From assembly GCA_965649765.1 (NCBI GenBank), contig OZ287750.1, positions 62,496,001 through 62,560,000 of the forward strand: a stretch of 64,000 bases of DNA, read 5' to 3'. The stretch comes from Bispira polyomma. Lineage: Eukaryota. Of the stretch, positions 1,377 through 50,924 are shown piece by piece. Both the position numbers and the translations under genes were made by a program. The stretch's first letter is position 1; each line of letters begins with the position of its first letter. Below the pieces are notes generated by a model. That model was not told the origin of the DNA and did not search any database. It saw only the letters and a program-made list of their open reading frames with translations.

Positions 1377-4300
1377 AAGTAATGATAGGTAAATGCTGTA
1401 TGCTGCATCAATCTACTATTCTAGTTTGGAGTTAAGAAATCATTATGTCCACCTTTTGATCCGCTTGGTCACCACAGTATGCCAGACTATTGCTGCCATA
1501 GTATTTTAGTGACCCAAAAATAGGATAGCCCCTTTTCTCCATTTTTAAGTGCAAAAACTACCAAGACAAAGGCTCATCTGTTTGAGGTTTGGGAAATTTG
1601 ACTAAAATTGTACAGAATGTTGTTAGTTGGATGTTGATCATCATTTATTGTTTGCTTCATTTATTGTTTTTCTACATTCGACTTACATTTTATACTTTAT
1701 TCAAATAGGTACATATAGGCCTATGTTTTGTGGCCGTGGCTATGTTTTTTGACTTCTCTATTGGTTACCTGATTTGGCTGTTGAACTTTAGAAGATGCCT
1801 CGCATTAAGAAGGTGAATACAATACATGTACAATAATTTTTAAGCAATTAGAGTATTCACAGAACATTTACCCATACATTGTTTTATAAGTATCTAATAT
1901 AGGTCAAAATATTGCCAACAGTGATTAAAGGTAGAATTTACTGATTTTCCATGATAATTTAGTCTGGAGTAGCTACTGAAATGTGTGCATTTAGCAATCT
2001 AAAAATCACATATAAAGGGCGGTTGGGGTGCACTATATATAATAATCAGAGGGGGGCCCTTATTACAGACAACACTGCATATATAGTGGATGTGTGTGGT
2101 TTCTTATGGTGAGGGATTGTTTTACAATTGTAGAATAAAAGATAATCAATCCGGTGCAATATGAAAGTAAATTAACTACATGTGGTAATCAATTGTTATA
2201 TATTCTATTGAATGTAATATAAGCACATATATACATGTATATATATAAGTCTGATTTGACTGGTAACTTGCAATGCATGTAACTTTTGTTAGTGACCTGT
2301 ATAATGATATTAGGTGTATTTTTGTCTATTGATACATGGAGCAGCTTGTTGGAGCTATTGGTTTAAAGTTTTAAGTCTGTTTGACTTGTGGACAGTGATA
2401 ATTCTGCTTGGTCTTTCATATCTCTGTGTGTGTATATAGATGTATGTATAGTGGTTTACGTGGGGAGTTGGGTGTTACCTTTGTTCAGTTAGTCTACGTT
2501 TCCATGTCAGGAATAGGCGACGACAATTAACAATTCTTTTGTCTTTGCTCACATGGAAACAGATACTTCTAAATCAATGAAACTAATAAGATTGCCTGAT
2601 CACCTCAGAAAATAGCCTGCATAGAAACGTAGAATTAATATCACCATTTCACTGACAATTTTGTTTGGTCATGCTACATTCCTGTGTGAAGAAGTGTATT
2701 TGTTTCCATAAACATGCAGTATTTATCTGAATAAACACCCCAGAGGTGATGCATTTTTTTCCTTAAAGGGAGGGGAGGTACTATTTAGGACCAAATATTG
2801 GAGGTGGGCGAGCCTGACGGGCGATAAGTAAAGGTAATTTGTATTTCAGAACAAATAGTCTTGTTCAATGGTGGGTGTAATCATTTATTTACTTTCATTT
2901 AGTGATATAACAATTGGGGGGTTTTGAATACACATCATTTCAGTGGAGGTTGGCAATGTGTCAAGCTCAAAATGCAAAGCAATAGATGTTTCTCTTCAGC
3001 CAAATATGATATTTGTAAAAAAACAATAACAAGAAGTATGGTGGGGGAAAGGTTATTAAGAAGAGGGCATTTATTTGTATGGATACTGTATTAGTGTTTC
3101 TGGGTCGTCTCTGTGGCGTAGAATGTCACACGCAGAATGTCACACAATTGCCTCCAAATGTCGTCTTCATGGAAACATATTCTATATGTCATTAAATGCT
3201 GAACATGTGGACATTTACATCAGAAATACACGCATTAAAGTTGTTTTAATTAATCTTTCACACATAAAAGTTCAGCAGTGAAAATAAAATGCCAGTGAAT
3301 CCTTTTGAATTGTTAAAAATAGTAATATTTTATTCGAACTAAAATTTGCACGTATGTAGTATTTCTATTTTACCATACGGTCAAACATAGTTAACTGCGA
3401 GCTATTTGACTGTCACTGAGGTCTTACATGTCAGATACTCCATCCAGAGTATTGTTAAATATATGATCATTATTATTATATATAAAATGCAGAGTGTGTA
3501 GTCTATATAAAAATTGTGGCAGTACTATAGTTTTACACACTTATCCTGCATTCTCATGGACACAATTTGCGACAACCAACAGCTGATATGCATCAGTGAA
3601 TGTCTATGTCTCGATAAATTATCGTTACTTTACAATGTCCAAGTTCATATGTTTAGCTCTAGGAGTGGAACAAAAAATTGCATTCGAACGGAAAAAATCG
3701 CATGTGTTCAGTGTTTGGAAATATTTATTTTTTAAATATAGCATCCTTGCATCATTTGTATGAGAACAACAATACCTGATTTTGTGATCTCAAATCACTG
3801 TCTGTTGTTGCAAATTATGAGAATGCAGGCTTATCCCATCTGCAGATTGTTTAAGGTTGCATATAAATATATAACTGAAAAGGGATTTTGGATTTTGGTG
3901 TAATATGTATTATATCCACATGCTCTTTTGCTATGTAACAATACTTTGATAATATGGATTTGAGCATTGTTTAGCTTTTGTAGATATCAATATGCTGATT
4001 ATGATTGTATACACAATAGACTTACTCTGTTTTGTGTTTGAGTTATATGTTTCAACTTTTCCAACATTGCCTTCACTGTATAACTTGTAATGTAACTTTA
4101 ACAATTGAAAAAAATCTGTATATTTTAGTTGTGGCAAAATTGTCAAAATTCGCATAATCATATAAAATATTCCAGATAAGCGACAAATTTAAATTGGTTA
4201 CTATTTGAATATTTTATGGCTTATCAAGTGAATGAAGACTGATAACGATGTCCATCAAACTAACGATTTACCCACTATAAAATAGCGGATTTAAGAGGAT

Positions 4301-6085
4301 GCTTCTAATTGTAACCACCTGCTAGTGGTGGGAAAAAATAATAGGCCAGTGTTGGCAGTCAACCGCTTCTGCTGTATAGGAAACACATGATGATAAATTA
4401 TAAGAAGTAATAACATTCATGTCGCCCTCTGGTAGTCGGCTACATGGAAATGAGGGCTAAACAAAAAGCCAGAAGATTCCTCTTATAACATCTCCACCAG
4501 CCTGCACCAGGGCATATTCAGATTCCTGTAAGTTTGACTTTCTTTTACACAGATACCACCCAGCCATATTAGAAGTGTGCAGTGAAATTAACCAAATACC
4601 CCAGTATTCAAAATATTTAACTTGTTTGCCATGTATCAATCAACATCAATTTAATTGATAATCCGCGTGTTTTACTTTATTATTACTTTTAACATGTGTG
4701 TGTTTTTTGACAATCTTTAGGAGGCGATAGGATTATTTTTGATGTATATTTGAAGTGTACTGAGTACACGACCACACCTTAAGATTCTGTATTTGTGAGC
4801 TTTCAAATGTTAGTGGTAATAAGTATTACTGTATATACAACATACATGTATATATATATATGTTTAAACCAGTAGTACACTGCCCAGGAAATCTTTGCCA
4901 TAATTTTAATGTACTTTTTCATTGTTAATGAAGAAATAAGTACAAGTGATAGTCTCAGAATCGTAATCACAAAGTGATGAATAGTTCAGACAGTAACAGT
5001 ATTGTAAGCCTATTTTTTATCTGAAAGTTATTGATGATTATATCTAAATTAAATTTTATCAATGATGAAAAATGATATTACACCCCCTCATCCTTCCTTG
5101 TGGCTGTAGCTATGTTGTTGTTTTTACTTCTCTATTGGTTAATCAATAAGGCGTGTTAAAAATATATATTACAAAGGTGTGATTTGGGAAAAATGGTTTA
5201 AAACTTTTGTTTGTGGTCTAAACGTTTTTTGGGTGGTGTATTACGTACTTGTAGTTGTTTTAAGCAACTTTAACTGTGTTCATTGTGTTAGCAGCACATT
5301 AAAATGTGGCTCTTTACCCCATCTTTTGGCTTTTTTTATGTTGTCAAAGATGTTTAAACCAAGTAAGTATAGTCTATATACAAACATATAGAAGTTGTTT
5401 TGTAGCATTTTCTTGTTCAACATGTGAAACACGCTAATTATCTCCTTATGGTATTGTATTTGTGGCTTAGCCAAATAAAAGCTATCAAAAAAGGTGCTTT
5501 CTTTTACTTGTTTTGGTTTGGGGGGTTTTTGCTGTGCATTTCTTTGGGGAAAAAAGGATGAAAACTATCAGAGTTCAGTCACCTGATAAGAATTTCCTAT
5601 ACTTTATAGAAACCTATAAGAAATACAGATTGATTTTATAAAATCTCAGATTGCTGGGTTTTATATCATCCATTCGGAGGTTCTTATGACTAGTGGTCCT
5701 TTTTCTAGCTTGTACTTAGTGGTCGTCACACTAAAAAGTGATGTCCTCCTCGGGCGTCAGCTTGGTGCTTTGCCAGGTGGAGTGAGGTTTATATAGAGTA
5801 CAGTGTTAAACCAGTCAAACTCATGGTATGTAATGTCAAATCTCAAGCAAACTAGACACAATATCTCTACTTAAGTGGAACAACTTCCAGGTAACAGAGA
5901 TATTAAAGGAGGAATTCTTCTGTGGCTCTTCAACTTCAGGTCAACTAAAAACGAGAAATGAAGAAAAGAGTGTGTCAGTTAAAACTGGATATAACTGGAT
6001 TTCATACAGCTCAGGTTCACCTTCCATCACTCTGGGTTGGATATAGTGTTTGACCATGATGGCGTAGGTAGGTGGTGCTTTGCAA

Positions 6086-6437
6086 CATGTGAGCAACGCC
6101 GATAGGCGACAGGCAATGCCAGGCGATTTTTTCGCTACTAGGAGCGAAAAAAATCGCCTGGCATTGCCGTCGCCTTGTAAACATTGCCGATTTTTTTGTA
6201 ATAACTCAAAAATTACTGAAGGTATAAATTTCATGAAAATATGGCGAGGAAGCTTATTTTATCGGGTATATTGTGCTTTTTGTTGCATCAAAATCGGTTT
6301 AGAAATGGCTAAGATATTCAGGTTTAAATACAGGTATCTATTTTTTTCAAATAATTGTATAGAAACATAAAATTTGAAAATTGCCTGTTAAACGTCGGCT
6401 GGTCGCCTCAGAAAGTTGCCTGCATGGAAACGCTCAC
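6086..6437. mobile_element. Truncated copy of the Harbinger-like MITE family (cf. 26538, 53206)
   Basis: Right TIR gtcgcctcagaaagttgcctgcatggaaacgctcac ends at 6437. Internal hairpin ggcaatgccaggcgattttttcgct...agcgaaaaaaatcgcctggcattgcc. About 100 bp of the left end are missing. Confidence 0.85.
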
Positions 6438-6699
6438 TATCTAGTGAGGGTGATTTTTCCCATAATTCATCAAATTTAACATTGGAATCTTCAGAAATGT
6501 AAGAATGTTGAGAAAAAAAAATTAGTATTGAGTGAAGCTGCGATTTCCTGGAATTAATAGCAGACATACGCAGTGCTGTCATAAATTAAAATATCTAAGT
6601 TAGCCAGTATTTTATCTAATATTGATCTCTGTTGGAGATGATGTAAGCACCTTTGAGAGTTTGAGAATGTCTGACTTTGTGTTTGAGTTCACAATTTCC

Positions 6700-6917
6700 T
6701 TTCTAGATATAAGGACTTCCATGTATTCCTCTTTGAAGTCAACTAGAAAGTTTAAGCTTGAGTTTAGCATGCAGGGCCCGCAAGCTGTAAAGAGGTAGAT
6801 TCATACTGTTTCTGGATATAAGGACTTTCATGTAACCCTCTTTGAAGTCTACTAGAAAGTTTAAGCTTGAGTTTAGCATGCGGGATTCACAAGCCTTAAA
6901 AGGGTAGATTCATACTA
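6700..6917. repeat. Tandem duplication, ~109 bp x2
   Basis: ttctagatataaggacttccatgt...ctagaaagtttaagcttgagtttagcatgc...gtagattcatact occurs at 6701 and 6810. Confidence 0.8.
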
Positions 6918-7427
6918 AAGCTCATAGGGATCTGTAATAAAGATCCAAAAAGCAGATATTTTGCTTGAATTCATACTGGACCCAAAATCTGGCCTGATGA
7001 TGTGCATCAACTTATGCATAATGATATGCATTAAATTTCTCATTCAAAATTGATTCTCATTTTTTAGTTCAACTGGGTTAAATTCGGAGAAAAATTTGAA
7101 AGAAAAAAAATCTGTTTAATTGTTTTCTAGACAGGATAAGCCCCTCAGGATCTGTTGTGACTGCGGACACTATTTTCTTTGTTTCAAGTATTTCCCTATT
7201 CTGAGGTCCGTATTCAAATCCGGTCTGTGTGAATCTAGCTTGAATCATGCCATGTATTAAGTTTAAAGCACAGCAAACCACACACATTGTCTGTTTTGTT
7301 TCTGCCGTCGTTGTCAGTACACTTTTCAAACCACTAACTAGCCACTAGTAATACAACAGATGGAACTCTAATTTGGCAGGACACTCTATTATTCAAACAT
7401 GTTGAAAGATCACAAGATTTTGCTAAC

Positions 7428-7760
7428 GGCCGACTCCCACTTATGCGAGTTAGAAAAACGATGCCCATGTGTTTTTGGCGATTAGCCGGTCACATAGGGA
7501 TCTCCCAAAGTAACCACCTTAATATTTGAAACCACAGGGATTTCCTTCTGAAACCCTGGGAAACATAGATCTCCATGGGCATTGTAGAAATTTAGGAATT
7601 TCCGCAATGAACGTGGCACAGCAGGGGTGGTCATCGCTATACTTTCCTCCATATGTGATCTGGCCAATACTGACCACGACTAAATACAAGAATTACTTGC
7701 CAGATACGGGCTGGGTAAGCAGAGAAAATCACAATGCTAACGCAAAAGTGAGAGCCGGCC
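7428..7760. mobile_element. MITE with ~20-bp imperfect TIRs (GGCC termini)
   Basis: Left ggccgactcccacttatgcg, right cgcaaaagtgagagccggcc. No clean TSD. Confidence 0.6.
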
Positions 7761-8179
7761 ATTGAATAATATAAACTGTGATAAAGTAGTTTAGTGTAAA
7801 ACTACATGTATACCATATACTGTAATGGAAATTTAGAAGGGTGAAAGCATGTTCATCATATTCAGATAATAGGGGTTCTACTGTATTAGGAATGCTAACA
7901 TTATATAATACAGCTAAACTAAAACCTCTATTATCTGAACACCTTGGGAAAGTAAGATCTTCTTTGAATAATACAAAAATTAGTTCACAAATTGAAATAT
8001 TCGAACGATTATAGTTTGGATAATCGAGGTTCTACTATAGATTTGTTGGTGTGTTGACTAATTTTTTTTGATACCATATTGTATTAGGACCACAACGTAG
8101 TGTACATATCCCCTAGAGTTTGCTAGAGTAAGAATGACTTTGTGAAGTAGTGAAGATATGAGACCGTAAAACCCAACAT

Positions 8180-15115: not shown

Positions 15116-16187
15116 ATTATGTCCACCCCAGTGGGGGGTGGACATATTATTTTTGCTTTTTCCGGCGTCCGCCGTCCGTCACGTTTGGTTTCCGGTCATT
15201 TCAAGAAAAAGTATTTATCCTATGTCTATCAAATTTGGTGTGGGTGTTTATTGGGTTAATAGCTTGCATGGGATTGCTCCATAGCTAACTGAGTAATAGC
15301 TACTTATTTACTTTTATGTACTTCTTTTGTTTTCGGGCATTTTAAGGAAAAATATTTGACATATCTTTACCAAATTTAGCATGACCAATAGTTAGGTCAA
15401 TAGCTTGCGTGGGATTGCTTTTAATGATAATAGCTATATAACTGACTCAGCAATAGCTACTTAGCTACTTTTAGTAGTAATAGCTACATAGCAAAAAACA
15501 TAAATATGTCTATCTCCTAAACCATGCGAGATAGAGCGATTTCGTCGAAATTTTCGACCCTCAGGGTATCTGAGCAATGTAATCTTGGCAATTTTGAAAA
15601 AAAATTTACTCTCCCCAATAATGGCGGCCATTTTGAATTTTCGAATTTTTCCCAAAACTGGAAAAACACAAATTTGCTTATATCTCCTTAACCGTGCGAA
15701 ATAGAGCAATTTTGTTTAAATTTTCAACCCACAGGGTATCTAATCAATGTACTCTTGGCAATTTTGAAAAAAATTTCCTCTCCCCAAAAATGGCGGCCAT
15801 TTTAAATTTTCGCATTTCTGCCAAAAATGGAAAAACACCAATTTGAGTCTATCTCCTTAACCGTGCGAGATAGAGCGGTTTCGGCAAAATTTTTGACCCA
15901 CAGGGTATCTAAATAATGTAGTTTTGGCAATTTGCAAAAAATTTCCCTCCTTTCAAAAGTGGCGGCCATTTTGAATTTTCGAATTTTTGCCAAAAATGGA
16001 AAAACACAAATTTGCTTCTATCTCCTTAACCGTGCAAGATAGAGCGATTTCGTCGAAATTTTCGACCCACAGAGTATATAAAAAATGTACTTTTGGCAAT
16101 TTTTAAAAAAATTTCCTCTTCCCAAAAATGGCGGCCATTTCGAATTTTCAAATTTCTGCCAAAAATGGAAAAACACAAATTTGCCCT
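15116..16187 (+). mobile_element. Helentron-associated non-autonomous element (HINE-like), copy 1, ~4 units of the ~169-bp internal satellite; 3' end not found
   Basis: 5' palindrome tatgtccacccc-agtgg-ggggtggacata, then cgtccgccgtccgtc microsatellite. The ~390-bp head is nearly identical to the copy at 32688. Tandem units start at 15509. Confidence 0.85.
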
Positions 16188-27872: not shown

Positions 27873-30080
27873 AGACCATGAATAATGTAAAGTCATGTCA
27901 ATTCATTCATTATATAAGAAGCATTTCAACTGTTTTTGGTGTTACAATTTGCTTGAAGCACTGACAAGTACTCCATGGTCAATGACGGTATGGACAAGAT
28001 CCCTCCCTCACACACTCACACAGTCCCTACCCTTTCAAACACAAGCACCCTTCGATATAACCTTTTGGCCAGTGCTACTACATTTAACTCATTAGCTAGG
28101 TGGTATTTAAGGCGATTTTTTACAAAGTGACTTAAGTCTTTGGTAACCTGAGTATAGGTTGAGGTACTACTAGTTAGTGATTCCTCCTTGGCTACAATGA
28201 TGAAGTACCATATTGATGAATTTTACGTTACTTACTTAAGCTACTTTAACAGTTGTTTGAAATTTTATATGTGAAATTTGCCTAAATTAAGTCAAGTGTG
28301 GACACTTAAAGAACTAAATAGTATCCACTTGGAACAAAGCCAATGTACCACAAGTGTATTTGTCAACTTGATAATAAATATAATGTCTCACACTTGCCTA
28401 TAGTTTATGTGAGATTCATTTCCAGCAGATCCAGCAGATCTATTGCTTACAATTTCGTCAGGGGATATCATCTCCTAATCAATTCACACTGCGCCTTAAC
28501 TCCCATCTGTAAAAGGCTAGTATGTTTGTCTTTACATTATAAAATTTGGCTAGGATCCTGGAATTGCATCCAGAACCTAGATAAAAGATCTGTGCATAGT
28601 TTTGCCTGTATATTTGGATGCCAGTTTTCAGATTCCTATTAGTCTGAATGCTTACTATGATGCATCTTCTTGTACTCACTCATAAGCTAAAGTGATGTGG
28701 AAATTCGAATTTAGCTGAATGTGAATAGGTCATAATACAAACAATGGTTGGTTATAACTTCTGGTTTGCCGAACTCGTTAGTTGTCCAATGGGATCCTCC
28801 CCGTTAAATGTAATGCTGTATTGCTTGCAATTTTTGGCAATGTACAAGCAACGGTAAAAAGCAGTCCAAACGACCATTAGTGATAATACGATGGCAATTC
28901 TATCACATGTTATGCTGAACCCTTAAAGGCCCCCCACTAGAGGTTGTAAATGACAATTTGATAAAATAATTGCTGTCTTCCTTTTTAGGGTGACATTCGT
29001 AGTGGAAATAAAATTGCTCAGGAAGAAATTCCATTCTTATGTTTTGGACCAGTTAAAAAAAACACCTTGTGTTGGACATGTCTTTAGTGGTGGCATTGTT
29101 TGCTAAAAAAAACCTTTCACTTGTCTCTTAAAGAGAAAGAAACAAGATGGACCAGTTGTTTGTGGTAAAATTATGTGACTAAATCCAGACATAACTCTCG
29201 ATTTAAATGTTACATATATTACAGCATGTGTCAAATTTTGCAGATTTGGACCAATGTTTCATTTATCATTTTAGATATTTGAATATTTTAGTAGAAACCT
29301 GTTCTTAGTTTTAGTTTTTTTTTTAGGGGAGGCTGATTTGTAAAAAAAAACACCAGTATTGATAAAACAGTTGTTAGGATTACATGACAGAAGTCAAATA
29401 CAGTTGTTTAAGTCTCAGCCTGTCAATTGTGAAGTCATTGAGACTGTACACGCATACAGAGTCAGACTTAAGGTCTGTTTTCATACATGCGTATCAGTCA
29501 TCCGTTATTGCCAGTGAGGCATGATCACTTATCTGATGACCTATAGTATTTTAATAGCTGCCTCTAACCAGAACTGTCATTAGAACATGGAGTAATCCCA
29601 GGACACGTACTATATAAGTATGTAGTCAATTTTTTTTGTAAAATCCAAGAGGTGGATAGTTCTTAAAGAAACTGACATTAGCTATAAAATGTGGTTATTC
29701 TTTTCAATAACCAATTGACTTTTAGAACAGAAACTGCCATCTTCAAAATAACTTACATGCATTAATCCTAATAAATTTGAAAAAAAAAGTGATGGTCTTT
29801 GTATACAGAAACAACCTATACTTAAGTTGTGAACCTCATATTAAGTTTTTTTTTTATCCTATTCATCATAAGTTTGCAAATATTCTGTACTTTCAACCCT
29901 GTCCTTTTCAACATATGTTCAGAGTTGATGGTTAAATGTATAGGTGTGTACAGTAAAACATATAATTAATCTATAGACTCATTGAGTACGAAGTCAACCT
30001 TCACGGCTGAATGTGAGTTTTAATTTTTAGGTAGAATTATATTTAGCTACTAATAAAGTAGAACCTCTATTATCTGTACA

Positions 30081-31041
30081 CTTCCATGTGTCATATATAT
30101 AACACATTGTGAGAGGTGAGCCTGCACTTCGATGTGTCATATATATAACAAATTGTGAGAGGTGAGCCTATGCTTCCATGTGTCAGATATATAACACATT
30201 GTGAGAGGTGAACCTATGCTTCTATGTGTCAGATATATAACACATTGTGAGAGGTGAGCCTACGCTTCCATGTGTCAGATATATAACACATTGTGAGAGG
30301 TGAGCCTATGCTTCCATGTGTCAGATATGTAACACATTGTGAGAGGTGAACCTACGCTTCCATGTGTCAGATATACCGGTTCCGCTTTCGGAAGTGCCCA
30401 GGGGCGTAAACGACGAAAATTCAAAGAAGTTGGGGGTGGGCGTTTGCGAGAAGGGGCGTTACGCGAACTCATTTTTCGTTTTAATCTGTACAAACACTTT
30501 AAAATGACATAAAATACACAAAAATCACCTATTTTATCTGTGATATAAAATAATCAAACAAATCCATACAATTTCTTGCGAAAAACAGCCCCATTTTGTT
30601 GTTTTTATCTTCAACTGTGTACTGGAAATTACAGGTGCTTCCAGGTGAGAAAACGTCACCATTGTTAGTGTACACAGGAAGCGCAAATGATGGCCAATTA
30701 TATGACCAAGTTACCTTAAACTATTATGTTTTACAAAGTTTTGCATATAAAAACATCGATTTTTGATAGTTTCTTTATGGTACTTTTTGTTATATGATTC
30801 GTTTTTTGCAAAATTAATTATCCGTTTTCCGTAATATTTGAAAAGTTGGGGATGGGCGTTTACGTGAACATGGGCGAGATGGAGAGCGGAACCGGTATAA
30901 CACATTGTGAGAGGTGAGCCTACACTTCCATGTGTCAGATATATAACACATTGTGAGAGGTGAACCTATGCTTCCCTGTGTCAGATATATAACACATTGT
31001 GAGAGGTGAGCCTACGCTTCCATGTGTCATATATAACACAT
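30081..31041. repeat. Minisatellite, 46-bp unit, ~9-10 copies, interrupted by a MITE
   Basis: Unit cttccatgtgtcagatatataacacattgtgagaggtgagcctacg, starting at 30081, 30127, 30173 and onward; the array resumes at 30896. Confidence 0.95.
30376..30895. mobile_element. Tc1/mariner-type MITE (520 bp) with TA TSD
   Basis: TIRs ccggttccgct / agcggaaccgg. Uninterrupted units read tcaga(ta)3acac, while the interrupted unit has (ta)2+element+(ta)2, i.e. a TA duplication. Confidence 0.9.
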
Positions 31042-31309
31042 TTTATTTTCTAATCATTTTTTCTAGTCCAAGGACTACAATTCTAAATATGGCAAAGGAT
31101 CAATAGCGTTTTGAGGTGCACATTGTGAGGGGCAAAATATTAACATAGTATAGCATTTATCAAAGTAAAATTAAAGTTTGGATAATGGAACATCTACTTT
31201 ATAAATACTAATTGTACAGCCCTATCCCAGTCAGTTGTGTAAACCATAGGCTTTCATTCACGCACCCTTTTAGCAGTGACAAAACGTGAGTCAGGTGACA
31301 CATGTGACA

Positions 31310-32213
31310 TTTTCTGTGTTTTTTCAGGTATACTAGTCAGTACACTTTATAACACGATGGTTTTAGTTACACCTGTCAGTTAGTAAACATTATAAGATTG
31401 TGTGTTTACGGTTACCCTTATCAGCTGGTAACCGTTATAACATTGCATTTTTGTTTGGTTACACTTGCCATTACACTTTATAACACATGTCAGTTAGTAA
31501 ATGTTATCACATTCTGTGTTTACAGTTACACTCATCGGCCAGTAAACATTATAACATTCTGTGTTTACAGATTCACTCATTAGCTGGTAAAAGTTATAAC
31601 ATTGTGTTCCACAGTTATATTTGTCAACCAGTAAACATTATAACATTGTGTTTTTTACAGTTACTCATCAGTTAGTAAACGTTATAACATTGTGTGTTTA
31701 TAGTTACACTCTTTAGTACACGTTATAACGTTATGTGTTTACAGGTACACTCATCAGTAAACGTTATATCATTGTATGTTTACAGTTATACTCGTCAGTA
31801 AATGTTATAATGTTGTGTGTTTACAGTTACACTCGTCAGTAAACATTATAACATTGTGTTTTTTACAGTTACTCGTCAGTTAGTAAACGTTATAATGTTG
31901 TGTGCTTACAGTTACTCTCATCAGCTAGTAAACGTTATAACGTTGTGTGTTTACAGTTACACTCTTTAGTACACGTTGTAACGGTATGTGTTTACAGGTA
32001 CACTCATCAGTAAACGTTATAACATTGTGTTTACAGTTACACTCGTCAGTAAACATTATAACATTGTGTGTTTACAGTTACACTCGTCAGTAAATGTTAT
32101 AACGTTGTGTGTTTACAGTTACACTCGTCAGTACATGTTATAACATTGTGTATTTACAGTTACACTCGTCAGTACACGTTATAATATTGTTTGTTTGCAG
32201 TTACATTCGTCAG
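31310..32213 (+). repeat. Minisatellite, 41-45-bp unit, ~21 copies, running into the splice acceptor and exon start
   Basis: Unit acagttacactcgtcagtaaacattataacattgtgtgttt. The last unit is the real junction ttgtttgcag|ttacattcgtcag. Confidence 0.92.
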
Positions 32214-32327
32214 TTGCCCAGCCACACGACCTCACCTGTCAAGTGTGTGAGAAGCAATGTTACAGTACAGACAGGTTCTACAAACACATGCACAAGTATC
32301 ACCCGGACTACTGGAGAGTGTTTGCAG
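32201..32327 (+). CDS. C2H2 zinc-finger protein, internal coding exon (finger 1); gene 5'-incomplete in this window
   Basis: Acceptor ttgtttgtttgcag|32201 (an alternative AG is at 32212-32213) and donor G|gtcagt at 32328 (phase 1). Encodes LHSSVAQPHDLTCQVCEKQCYSTDRFYKHMHKYHPDYWRVFA, a C-x2-C-x12-H-x4-H finger. Phase matches the next exon. Confidence 0.85.
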
Positions 32328-32687: not shown

Positions 32688-35222
32688 ATTATGTCCACCC
32701 CAGTGGGGGGTGGACATATTACTTTTGCTTTTTCCGGCGTCCGCCGTCCGTCACGTTTGGTTTCCGGTCATTTCAAGAAAAAGTATTTATCCTATGTCTA
32801 CCAAATTTGGTGTGGGTGTTTATTGGGTTAATAGCTTGCATGGGATTGCTCCATAGCTAACTGAGTAATAGCTACTTATTTACTTTTATGTACTTCTTTT
32901 GTTTTCGGGCATTTTAAGGAAAAATATTTGACATATCTTTACCAAATTTAGCATGACCAATAGTTAGGTCAATAGCTTGCTTGGGATTGCTTTTAATGAT
33001 AATAGCTATATAACTGACTCAGCAATAGCTACTTAGCTACTTTTAGTAGTAATAGCTACATAGCAAAAAACATAAATATGTCTATCTCCTAAACCATGCG
33101 AGATAGAGCGATTTCGTCGAAATTTTCGACCCTCAGGGTATCTGAGCAATGTACTCTTGGCAATTTTGAAAAAAAATTTACTCTCCCCAATAATGGCGGC
33201 CATTTTGAATTTTCGAATTTTTACCAAAAATGGAAAAACGTAAATTTGCTTCTATCTCCTTAACCGTGCGAGATAGAGTGATTTCGTCGAAATTTTCGAC
33301 CCATAGGGTATCTAAAAAATGTACTATAAGCAATTATCAAAACATTTTTCTCTCCCCAAAAATGGCGGCCATTTTGAATTTTCGAATTTTTCCCAAAACT
33401 GGAAAAACACAAATTTGCTTCTCTCTCCTTAACCGTGCGAGATAGAGTGATTTCGTCAAAATTTTCGACCCACAGGGTATCTAAAAAATGTACTATAGGC
33501 AATTTTCAAAAAATTTTCCTCTCCCCAAAAATGGCGGCCATTTTGAATTTTCGAATTTTTGCCAAAATGGGAAAAACACAAATTTGCTTCTATCTCCTTA
33601 ACCGTGCCAGATAGAGTGATTTCGTCAAAATTTTCGACCCACAGGGTATCTAAGAAATGTACTATTGGCAATTTTCAAAAAATTTTCCTCTCCCCCAAAA
33701 GTGGCGGCCATTTTGAATTTTTGCCAAAACGGGAAAAACACAAATTTGCTTCTATCTCCTTAACCGTGCGAGATAGAGCGATTTCGTTGAAATTTTAGAC
33801 CCACAGGGTACCTAATCAATGTACTATTGGCAATTTTCAAAAAATTTCCTCTCCCCAAAAATGGCGGCCATTTTGAATTTTCGAATTTTTGCCAAAAAAG
33901 GAAAAACACAAATTTGCTTCTATCTCCTTAACCGTGCGAGATAGAGCGATTTCGTCCAAATTTTCGACCCACAGGGTATCTAAAAAATGTACTATTGGAA
34001 ATTTTCAAAAAAATTTTCCTCTCCCCAAAAATGGCGGGCATTTTGAATTTTCGAATTTTTGCCAAAATGGGAAAAACACAAATTTGCTTCTATCTCCTTA
34101 ACCGTGCGAGATAGAGCGATTTTGTTGAAATTTTAGACCCACAGGGTACCTAATCAATGTACTATTTGGCAATTTTCAAAAAATTTCCTCTCCCCAAAAA
34201 TGGCGGTCATTTTGAATTTTCGAATTTTTGCCAAAAATGGAAAAACACAAATTTGTTTCGATCTCCTTAACCGTGCGAGATAGAGCGATTTTGTTGAAAT
34301 TTTCGACCCACAAGGTATCTAAAAAATGTACTATAGGCAATTTTCAAAAAATTTTCCTCTCCCAAAAATGGCGGCCATTTTGAATTTTCGAATTTTTGCC
34401 AAAACTGGAAAAACCCAAATTTGCTTCTATCTCCTTAACCGTGCGAGATAGAGCAATTTGTTATTACTCTCACACACTGCCCATCAATTGATTTCTTCTG
34501 AGCTTTCAAAGAATTTACGCACAGATTATACAACGAACAATAGCTTTTTCTTGATCTCGCCTGAGTAGACACACCACATACACCCTTCCTTTGGTGTAAA
34601 TAAAAAATTAGGAAACTTGTGCACCCTTTTTTTGATACAAATAAAATAACATGAAATTTATGCACTAAAGCTTTGATTTAAATAAATAAACTTATGAAAC
34701 TTATACATAAACCTGAAAAAAATGGACCTTAATCGATTGTAAATGTAGTTTATCATTACCTTACATCAGATTTTTATAAATAATAGTTAAATTGTCTGTT
34801 GCAAAGAAATTTTACAAAATTGATGCCCAATTTTCCCACCCATCACTTTAGCTGATGGCCAATTTTCCTGATGGGATTTTTTGCTGATGGGATTCACTTG
34901 ATGGACATTTTTCCTGATGGGCTTTTTTCAGGAATCTGTTACATGGTGCACACTACTAGGCAGTGCTTGTGTAAATGTGTTATGTACCATTTAGTTAGAC
35001 AGCATTTTGTCCCCCTTGCAATTTTGACTGCCGTTTTGTCCTATCGGTATTTTGTCCGACGACATTTTGTCCGTGCAGTTGAAATAATTTACATGTATAC
35101 TAATAAATTTTGGAGCATCGTTGATATATTTTACAAACAAAACATTCCTGTAAGACTACTGTGCAATTGTTTCAAAAGGTTCATGGGGTGGACATTACAC
35201 ATGCTAATGTGTGTTCTTCTAT
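32688..35222 (+). mobile_element. Apparently complete Helentron-associated element (HINE-like), copy 2, with ~8 units of the ~169-bp satellite
   Basis: 5' subTIR plus inverted repeat tatgtccacccc...ggggtggacata, then microsatellite. Units start at 33081, 33251, 33420, 33589, 33751, 33919, 34089, ~34258 and 34426 (partial). 3' subTIR ggggtggacat at 35185-35195, then hairpin acacat-gcta-atgtgt at 35197-35212. Confidence 0.85.
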
Positions 35223-36689: not shown

Positions 36690-36788
36690 GTGACCGCCCA
36701 CTGTCAGACTTCATCAATCCAGAAATCAGACACCGAGAGAAACCCTTTATGTGCCAAATCTGCAATAAGAAGTATAGTCATGAAACAG
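36690..36788 (+). CDS. C2H2 zinc-finger protein, internal coding exon (linker plus N-half of finger 2)
   Basis: Acceptor atttgctgtatcag|36690 and donor cag|gtatgt at 36789; 99 nt, phase 1/1. Encodes (G)DRPLSDFINPEIRHREKPFMCQICNKKYSHET(G), with an EKPF-type linker and CxxC. Confidence 0.9.
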
Positions 36789-37331
36789 GTATGTGTGTAC
36801 AAATGTTACCTAGGTGGACAAACAGTTATGTGTGTACAAATGTCACCTCGGTGGACAAACAGGTATGTGTGTGCAAATGTCACCTAGGTGGACAAACAGG
36901 TATGTGTGTACAAATGTCACCTAGGTGGACAAACAGGTATGTGTGTACAAATGTCACCTAGGTGGACAACCAGGTATGTGTGTGCAAATGTCACCTAGGT
37001 GGACAACCAGGTATGTGTGCACAAGTGTTACCTAGGTGGACAAACAGGTATGTGTGTACAAATGTCACCTAGGTTGACAACCAGGTATGTGTGTACAAGT
37101 GTCACCTAGGTGGACAAACAGGTATGTATGTACAAATGTCACCTAGGTGGACAACCAGGTATGTGTGTACAAGTGTCACCTAGGTGGACAACCAGGTATG
37201 TGTACAAATGTCACCTAGGTGGACAAACAGGTATGTGTGTACAAGTGTCACCTTGGTGGACAACCAGGTATGTGTGTACAAATGTTACCTAGGTGGACAA
37301 ACAGGTATGTGTGTACAAATGTTACCTAGGT
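36783..37331 (+). repeat. Minisatellite, 37-bp unit, ~15 copies, starting inside the exon and reiterating the splice donor
   Basis: Unit aaacag|gtatgtgtgtacaaatgtcacctaggtggac. Confidence 0.95.
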
Positions 37332-49332: not shown

Positions 49333-50924
49333 GTCTCTCCAAGCACTTAGTGACCCACCCAGAGTACCGTAACGATCCAAACTTCAAGGGGGCAGAGTTG
49401 TTCACCTGTCCCGTCTGCGAGAAGCTCTTCACCAGGGAGAACTACTTGGAAAGGCACATGGAGATGAAACACGATGAAGAGCATGCTAGGGCCTATGAGA
49501 TCTACAAGCAGAAGTACATCCGCAAGCCGCCACCAGTTGAGAACAGCGACCAGGCTGTACCAGTGTTAGATGGCCCGCACCCTCCTCCTCCTTCTCTCCC
49601 TCCTCCCCCTCCTCAACCAGCTATACGGGAAGCTAGGGAAAACCACATGTCTCCGCCTTTTCCTATGGACAACGGTAACCAAGGTAACATTGCAGTGAGG
49701 CCTGCCACCATCTCTCGGCCCCCTCCAGAATCTCCAAGCGATTCGGAAATCGAGGATTCTAGCCGGAGGAAGGAGAATCTACACGAGTCTCGAGGACTGC
49801 TTCCCTCCCATTCGGAGTCCTTTCACAGTGACACCTCCTTTGAGAGATCTAGTCCTAGTCGCCAGCCACATGCCTCCATGCCTCAGAGGGAGGCTGGCAC
49901 TCACTGGAACGAGACGAACAGCGCAAGAACAAGCCCCCGCGTCCCATCTGACACGCAGCACCAGCCCTACGACATGTCCCAACGGCCCGACATGATCTCC
50001 AAAACGCATCCGCCGGGCCCAGTACGGAGTGCCTCTGTCAGCCTGCCTGTATTCCCGGACTCGTTTGAGCGCCATATGAAGGACAAGGACTCCCCAGACG
50101 ACCCTAACATGCCTCGCCAGGGGCAAAAGTCTTACCTGTACCGACATATGGCCTCCCTAGACGAGGAACAGCTGCGCTCGGCCTCCAGCAACTTTGGGGA
50201 GCGGCAGATAACACACGACGCACACCAGGTGTCTTACGATCAGTTTGTGCGTGATCACATGATGGACGAACACAGAACCTCAGAGAAGGCTGACTTTAGT
50301 CAACGCAATGGTAACAAACAGGGTGTATCTCGCAGTGAACATTACCTCTCCTCTGATCCAGATGACAGGAGGGTGGCGGACAACTTCTTTGGCCAGCAGC
50401 ACCAACAGCAGCAGCAGCAGCAACATCCGCCACAGGCACGGCTGCCACCTTCCTCAGTAGGGACAGAGGTAGCCAATCACAGGCCACAAGAGAACTACAT
50501 GGACAGGAATCGGGGGCTGTCCAAGACGGCCTCCCCTGACAGTAATACTCACCTGAGCAGCCACGAGGACCCTATTTCCCACATAGACAGGCACTTCCCT
50601 TACGCTCGGTCACCAAGCCACGATCCAGTGAGATCCTTACCCAATCAGGAACACGCCCGACTTCTGGCGGGCAATGAGGATATGCGCTACGACTACCCAC
50701 ACTATAACACTCACGGCTTGCTGCCTCCCGGGCACGGTTTGGTACGCGAGCGATTCCCGTTCAACCTGCCCCCCTCCTCGCTGCCTGCGCCCAGTTTCCC
50801 TCATCCAATGAGTCCCAGGCCATCACTGGGTGGCCAGTACCCGACTCTGGGCCACCGCAGTGACGAGGAAGTGGCACAAGCCCTTGAGAGCCTGGCCAGG
50901 GCTATGAGGCCCGCTTATAGATAA
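49333..50924 (+). CDS. C2H2 zinc-finger protein, terminal coding exon (C-half of finger 2, finger 3, long low-complexity tail)
   Basis: Acceptor ctgtatttgtag|49333 (phase 1) completes CQICNKKYSHETG|LSKHLVTH (C-x2-C-x12-H-x3-H). Finger 3 is CPVCEKLFTRENYLERHMEMKH. The 524-aa ORF runs to TAA at 50922-50924, is clearly GC-richer than the flanks, and contains poly-Pro and poly-Gln tracts. Confidence 0.93.
50394..50423 (+). repeat. Coding CAG/CAA microsatellite (poly-Gln, QQHQQQQQQQ)
   Basis: cagcagcaccaacagcagcagcagcagcaa, in frame with the terminal exon. Confidence 0.85.

Follow-up and report, generated by a model that had tools for sequence, protein, structure and literature searches.

A 37-bp minisatellite on the 5' splice site of a zinc-finger gene in Bispira polyomma, and the frequency of such arrays at sampled splice junctions

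INTRODUCTION

Within the 64,000-nucleotide stretch of Bispira polyomma DNA analysed here (the window; contig OZ287750.1, positions 62,496,001 to 62,560,000), a 37-bp minisatellite begins on the last nucleotides of a coding exon and runs into the following intron, repeating the 5' splice site. Two questions arise from this arrangement, namely which of the donors is used and whether the array serves the gene that carries it. The initial annotation had offered either a copy-number-dependent splicing dial or strict selection of the first donor among decoys, and had suggested asking genome-wide whether tandem arrays overlap splice sites more often than expected. Here, we describe the array and its host gene, the predicted product of each donor, and a count of such arrays at splice sites of six gene families.

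RESULTS

Anatomy of the 37-bp array

According to TRF, the array has a period of 37, 14.9 copies, 92% matches and a score of 930. It consists of 15 units, 14 of which, the one with the true donor among them, carry the motif CAG/GTATGT (the slash marks the exon-intron junction); unit 12 measures 35 nt instead of 37. The initial annotation had about 14 such donors following the exon. The repetition of the donor was borne out, with the number corrected to 13 intact decoys after the true donor at 36788 and one broken copy, unit 2, which had rightly been singled out as the copy without the motif. The unit had also been divided into 6 exon and 31 intron nucleotides. The six exon nucleotides stand, while of the 31 'intron' nucleotides only 27 recur in the flank; the final 4 nt match neither the exon ahead of unit 1 nor the intron past the array. 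When scored with a splice-site matrix trained on the own exons of the same genome, the true site and the 13 intact copies all scored 10.8 bits, close to the 75th percentile of the donors picked, compared to 0.8 bits for unit 2; GT was kept in 13 of the 14 copies.

When the first 218 nt of the array were searched against the genome, with very common words skipped, the search returned self matches only and no other locus with this array. The unit is locus-specific, neither a dispersed satellite nor a mobile element. Exon B together with array units was present in the short-read contigs of three DNA runs, and the far flank in X1/X2. Intron and exon are contiguous in these runs, which behave as DNA; the runs represent no more than two samples from a single study and may have supplied the assembled DNA itself. 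Their contigs give no size for the array, and summed depths over it were left out as copy numbers. The T of unit 2 at 36826 was found in a contig of sample S1 (X1/X2) and in none of the nine S2 contigs there, a weak hint of polymorphism, considering that contigs prove presence and not absence. Tandem arrays are error-prone in assemblies, and the copy number given here is that of the assembly, which would fit an assembly artefact. However, the units differ from each other at many positions, and the short-read contigs contain units, the unit-2 variant and both flanks, leaving an artefact highly improbable.

The host gene and its split finger

The array belongs to a C2H2 zinc-finger gene on the + strand (Table 1). 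Two exons ahead of the window, joined with exons A, B and C, give a 746-codon frame with seven full fingers of the form C-x2-4-C-x12-H-x3-4-H, and the finger split by the intron is the sixth complete one; its earlier description as finger 2 holds for the window and not for the gene model. The model, which starts 28 kb before the window, is a prediction based on frame, splice motifs and similarity to the protein P0017, and its 5' end was looked for and not found. In exon C, zf-C2H2 scored above its cut-off. Relatives such as P0007, P0008, P0011 and P0027 continue through the A/B and B/C junctions with intact finger spacing and no insert, and no insert was seen in the split finger of any read-through relative among the 15 of 23 matches inspected. 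Because of these relatives and the finger spacing, the exon B donor at 36788 was taken as genuine. Searches of the PDB, the protein atlas and a representative set returned generic C2H2 matches and no named ortholog. A neighbouring C2H2 gene (L223, about 4700-7900) lies on the same strand and has a multi-finger open frame like the upstream exons of the host gene. It is possibly a tandem paralog of the host gene and presumably resembles the lin-29/rotund/ZNF384 type.

Table 1. Positions of exons, arrays and array units (window coordinates unless a locus is given)
Feature	Position	Strand	Remarks
Upstream exon	L226:1696-1918	+	about 28 kb ahead of the window
Upstream exon	L227:1014-1210	+	about 19 kb ahead of the window
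Mirror-image array, 41 bp x 17	31496..32214	+	multiplies the exon A acceptor; unit of 27 intron nt + 14 exon nt
Exon A, 127 nt	32201..32327	+	one whole finger; first residues also complete a finger from the preceding exon, ahead of the window
Exon B, 99 nt	36690..36788	+	ends past the Cys pair of a C2H2 finger; true donor 36788/36789
37-bp minisatellite, 15 units	36783..37331	+	unit 1 straddles the exon B/intron junction, with 6 exon nt
Unit 2	36820..36856	+	T for G at the first intron position (36826); reads CAG/TTATGT
Unit 4	36894..36930	+	donor 36899/36900; sole decoy in frame without stop, +37 residues, finger broken
TAG in unit 5	36959..36961	+	first in-frame stop on read-through; inside every donor product from 36973 on
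Exon C	49333..50924	+	last coding exon found; completes the split finger, with one further finger and a long low-complexity tail

Predicted product of each donor

When the donors were joined to the acceptor at 49333, 36788 was the only one to give a canonical C-x2-C-x12-H-x3-H finger in an open frame. Apart from it, the frame stayed open without a stop only with the donor at 36899/36900 (+111), which places 37 extra residues between the two Cys and the two His of the finger, just as the initial annotation had read it. That most other donors shift the frame or include a stop also proved correct. Donors 36862 (+74) and 36936 (+148) cause a frameshift with a stop in exon C, and the TAG of unit 5 lies within the product of every donor from +185 (36973) onward. 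The rule for NMD sets a distance of 50-55 nt. Were no exon to follow exon C, the stops reached from +74, +148, +185 and, as a borderline case, +222 would miss this distance, and only the eight donors from 37047 onward would fall under the rule.

These products bear on the proposal that a longer or shorter array shifts the proportions in which the transcripts of a transcription factor are intact, carry a broken finger or decay. It would be favoured by the equal scores of the 13 decoys and the true donor, and by the one decoy that gives an in-frame broken finger. Against it, a single stop is common to all donors from +185, and further copies would bring no new protein; moreover, the finger was without insert in the read-through relatives inspected.

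Further arrays in the gene and the window

Two more arrays multiply splice sites of the same gene. In the mirror-image 41-bp array, AG is retained in 16 of 16 upstream copies; the exon A acceptor, like the exon B donor, sits within a zinc finger, and among the candidate AGs tested the frame is open only from 32200. The third array, 28 kb ahead of the window (L226, about 1900-3290; G000:C3), comprises 18 copies of a 69-bp unit that repeats the L226 exon donor. The first of them have decayed, which places the TRF start of the array about 125 nt into the intron, and a strict TRF criterion would miss it. Three junctions of the host gene carry three unrelated units, of 69, 41 and 37 bp.

Two further repeats were observed in the window. 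At 30077-31042, a 46-bp array is split by an insertion of about 520 nt, the ends of which are inverted-repeat-like (a small transposon-like element); the 46-bp unit holds an acceptor-like AG and a donor-like GAG/GTGAG 21 nt apart, and a matching exon was not found. At 15494-16184 and 33066-34459, one 169-bp unit occurs in 4 and 8 copies, respectively, and these arrays are probably the cores of a dispersed element.

Splice sites that head arrays in six gene families

The survey sample consisted of exon-wise Pfam matches to conserved multi-exon families (myosin head, aldehyde dehydrogenase, kinesin, two dynein domains and SNF transporters). From the 520 matches listed, 430 entered, namely those with DNA retrieved after seven SNF rows that were intronless or broken had been taken out; 427 of the 430 could be used, amounting to 1.05 Mb. 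Splice sites were those predicted with the matrix, blind to repeats; sites below 5 bits were dropped and near-identical paralogs were collapsed. Kinase matches (30 loci), being long open frames, were left out of the count. In the TRF test, a site was counted when it lay within the exon-proximal terminal unit of an array, and in the TRF-free test when the junction 20-mer was copied within 600 nt on the intron side, with no copy on the other side.

By the TRF test, arrays were headed by 22/265 donors and 28/261 acceptors in the first set, compared to 2.7% and 3.0% of intron bases, corresponding to 3.1- and 3.6-fold enrichment, respectively. The 20-mer test gave 29/262 donors and 36/259 acceptors in the first set, with a background of about 3%, and 10/117 donors (2.9-fold) and 14/110 acceptors (4.5-fold) in the second. 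In the pooled 20-mer test, 89 of 749 sites (11.9%) headed an array into the intron, 4.1-fold over a background that includes unannotated exons, which lowers the ratio (95% CI 3.1-5.2, bootstrap over 117 gene clusters). The enrichment on splice sites that the initial annotation had suggested looking for is therefore present in this sample. Only three arrays ran the wrong way, as against 89 into the intron, and at least one array-headed site was found in 56 of the 117 gene clusters and in all six families, ranging from 14/173 to 6/24. With copies of at most one mismatch, the enrichment was 2.4- to 3.7-fold.

The array rate was highest at the junction and near background by about 100-130 nt. Array edges lying 6-100 nt inside the intron were also about 1.5-3 times as frequent as background, indicating that part of the junction excess is nearness to exons. 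Compared to intronic decoy GT sites (63 of 1296), a set that includes unannotated true donors, the donor enrichment was weak, with an odds ratio of 1.8 (P 0.036; P 0.06 for arrays of at least three copies); for acceptors the odds ratio was 4.2.

Three near-identical myosin genes on three contigs (L039, L040 and L041) have a 53-bp donor array in common, of 12, 24 and 17 units, respectively, which is direct evidence of fast length change in junction arrays. In an SNF transporter gene (G000:C14:11520098-11520400, L222), a 159-bp tandem duplication contains a whole small exon and a short intron with splice sites intact twice. Among the kinase matches, many near-equal single-exon frames of about 411-418 codons were seen (L010-L030 and others, on at least 10 contigs), and on C4, around 97.6-99.1 Mb, some 15 copies follow one another; the scattered frames are possibly mobile-element cargo.

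Unit-level statistics

Unit statistics were obtained from 66 of 71 TRF arrays, the five others being left out for a broken-frame match, an exon-plus-intron duplication (counted twice), failure to align, or a repeat within a repeat. Overall, GT or AG was retained in 445 of 483 copies. The copy adjacent to the true site had lost it in 10 of 66 arrays, with 14.8 expected from its other changes. The idea that the adjacent copy is preferentially inactivated, as unit 2 might suggest, was rejected in both sets (8/46 with 10.4 expected, then 2/20 with 4.3 expected). In the 37-bp array itself, there was one derived GT change, compared to 0.58 expected, and the broken unit 2 looks like chance and no general rule. 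In 35 of the 66 arrays the adjacent copy was within 1 bit of the true site, indicating that equal decoys are tolerated. Periods were multiples of three in 5 of 31 donor arrays and 11 of 35 acceptor arrays, which gives no sign of a preference for in-frame products.

Among copies, derived GT/AG alleles numbered 20, compared to 37.4 expected, in 34 arrays (P 0.0014, which is optimistic, as copies are related). By set, there were 11 (24.1 expected) and 9 (13.1 expected), the latter not significant alone. This is a hint that copies keep GT/AG above expectation. It comes from a comparison among copies only, which replaced an initial comparison to unit 1 that was inflated, unit 1 being under selection.

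In 13 of 31 arrays (9/21 and 4/10 by set), compared to 4.1 expected, the intron part of the donor unit was 5-10 nt long, with its end just past the donor motif. None of the 31 had fewer than 5 intron nucleotides (2.1 expected), indicating that the first donor is always whole. The 37-bp unit, with 31 intron nt, falls outside the 5-10 nt class. Two further candidates did not replicate: units ending exactly at +5 (5/21 in the first set, 0/10 in the second), and a need of acceptor units for more than 20 intron nt (short units 4/25 with 8.8 expected, then 6/10 with 3.8 expected).

DISCUSSION

We consider it probable that the array is a tandem amplification of the exon end and donor of its host gene, in which the first donor is likely used and the 13 copies are likely near-neutral decoys. 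This reading is favoured because only 36788 yields the canonical finger and the relatives are free of an insert, and because junction arrays are common, occur in all six families and nearly always point into the intron. Judging by the relatives, and by the cases described in mammals and amphioxus, the exon-proximal donor is likely the one that the spliceosome uses. A short duplication across the junction would leave the exon and the first donor intact and could be tolerated by selection, and slippage or unequal crossing-over, the ordinary turnover of minisatellites, might then expand the duplicated unit. Such expansion would persist on the intron side only, considering that growth on the exon side would damage the protein. 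The exon-proximal site would win, as tested in human F7, although some splicing from downstream copies may occur at a low level, as it does in human CBS and 6-16. Two observations count against copies that are purely decoys, namely the under-mutation of GT/AG and the +111 donor, which, if used, is in frame and would escape decay.

According to PMC1557585, CBS and 6-16 use two proximal pseudo-sites, which, together with the retention of GT/AG somewhat above expectation, lends something to a copy-number dial. The same source describes first-site scanning, under which extra distal copies change nothing. Furthermore, arrays are present at 12% of the sites sampled, which belong to unrelated genes for motors (myosin, dynein and kinesin exons among them), enzymes and transporters; the donor-side periods are multiples of three in only 5/31, and the loss in unit 2 is no general trait. 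Considering the array rate and the two additional arrays in the host gene, the gene-specific dial put forward in the initial annotation is unsupported, and we regard it as very unlikely.

The amplification that we prefer does not by itself account for everything. The 4.1-fold enrichment is unpredicted by plain neutrality, and a further bias, in how arrays arise or in how long they persist, has to be assumed. Either duplications are more frequent near exon edges or they survive longer there, and both would fit the present data. One possibility is that a process tied to splicing or transcription makes or homogenises arrays preferentially at junctions, the 37-bp array being one product; example routes would be breaks or R-loops at sites of spliceosome binding, or gene conversion with the first unit as donor sequence. 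The enrichment, its persistence with near-identical copies, the peak of the rate at the junction, the excess of donor units ending just past the motif and the under-mutation of GT/AG would agree with such a process, and PMC3087553 calls the origin mechanism unclear. However, the excess of edges 6-100 nt inside introns could come, for example, from shelter against deletion or from arrays halted by exons; a conserved first unit prolongs detectability, and homogenisation makes old arrays look young. The +5 peak and the shortage of short acceptor units were unreplicated, and the focal unit itself lies outside the 5-10 nt class. We therefore rate directed origin as unlikely. Its explicit form, in which splicing-linked mutation aims duplications at junctions, with about one in eight seeded, breakpoints past the donor motif and GT/AG kept, appears doubtful to us. 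If directed mutation were true, mirages would make introns grow and create new splice sites throughout the genome under the guidance of the spliceosome, and would be more than isolated accidents.

In this genome the single 37-bp array is nothing unusual, and closely similar cases are on record; the useful part is the genome-level count. If the 12% rate extends past the six families, there are likely thousands of natural cases in which a splice site is chosen from among identical decoys, on donors and acceptors alike, and junction arrays offer natural material for first-site selection outside mammals. The four-fold excess bears on intron gain by tandem duplication and on the origin of mirages, which PMC3087553 calls unclear. 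At exon ends, junction arrays can also lead gene prediction and the mapping of short reads astray.

Comparison with known systems

By the features tested, the 37-bp array belongs with the junction-spanning ('mirage') minisatellites, and the arrangement has already been described. The closest likeness is the VNTR of human F7 intron 7, which, according to PMC1557585, also has a 37-bp unit, with the first unit over the exon 7 donor and identical pseudo-donors downstream. In 50 constructs, only the most upstream donor was used, and the next one was taken when the first was destroyed (PMC1557585). The F7 unit contains 4 exon nucleotides, compared to 6 here, and occurs in 5-9 copies, compared to 15; the donor motifs differ, and first-donor use is established there by constructs and deduced here. 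The likeness described here is one of period. The same source describes junction minisatellites in human CBS (intron 13), IFI6 (6-16), LMNB2 and PDGF, which resemble the present array as long arrays (10-25 units) reiterating the donor. The two pseudo-sites also used in CBS and 6-16 are proximal ones, whereas LMNB2 and PDGF use the true site only (PMC1557585).

Amphioxus mirages cover both boundary types and leave splicing undisturbed, with examples in Adh3, the globins BflGb6 and BflGb9, troponin C and PGBD5, according to PMC3087553 and PMC3902484. They share with the arrays described here the own exon-intron boundary in tandem, at donor or acceptor, GT/AG in most copies, the occurrence of several arrays per gene and unit sizes in the same range. 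The amphioxus cases were described gene by gene, with RT-PCR and length variation, whereas the present data are DNA only and provide a counted rate (89/749), a background and a replication set. A literature search by strict all-term matching, which covered few subscription papers and is weak evidence of absence, found no genome-wide count of junction-spanning arrays. What the present analysis adds to the known arrays is the rate, the enrichment and the hint of GT/AG retention.
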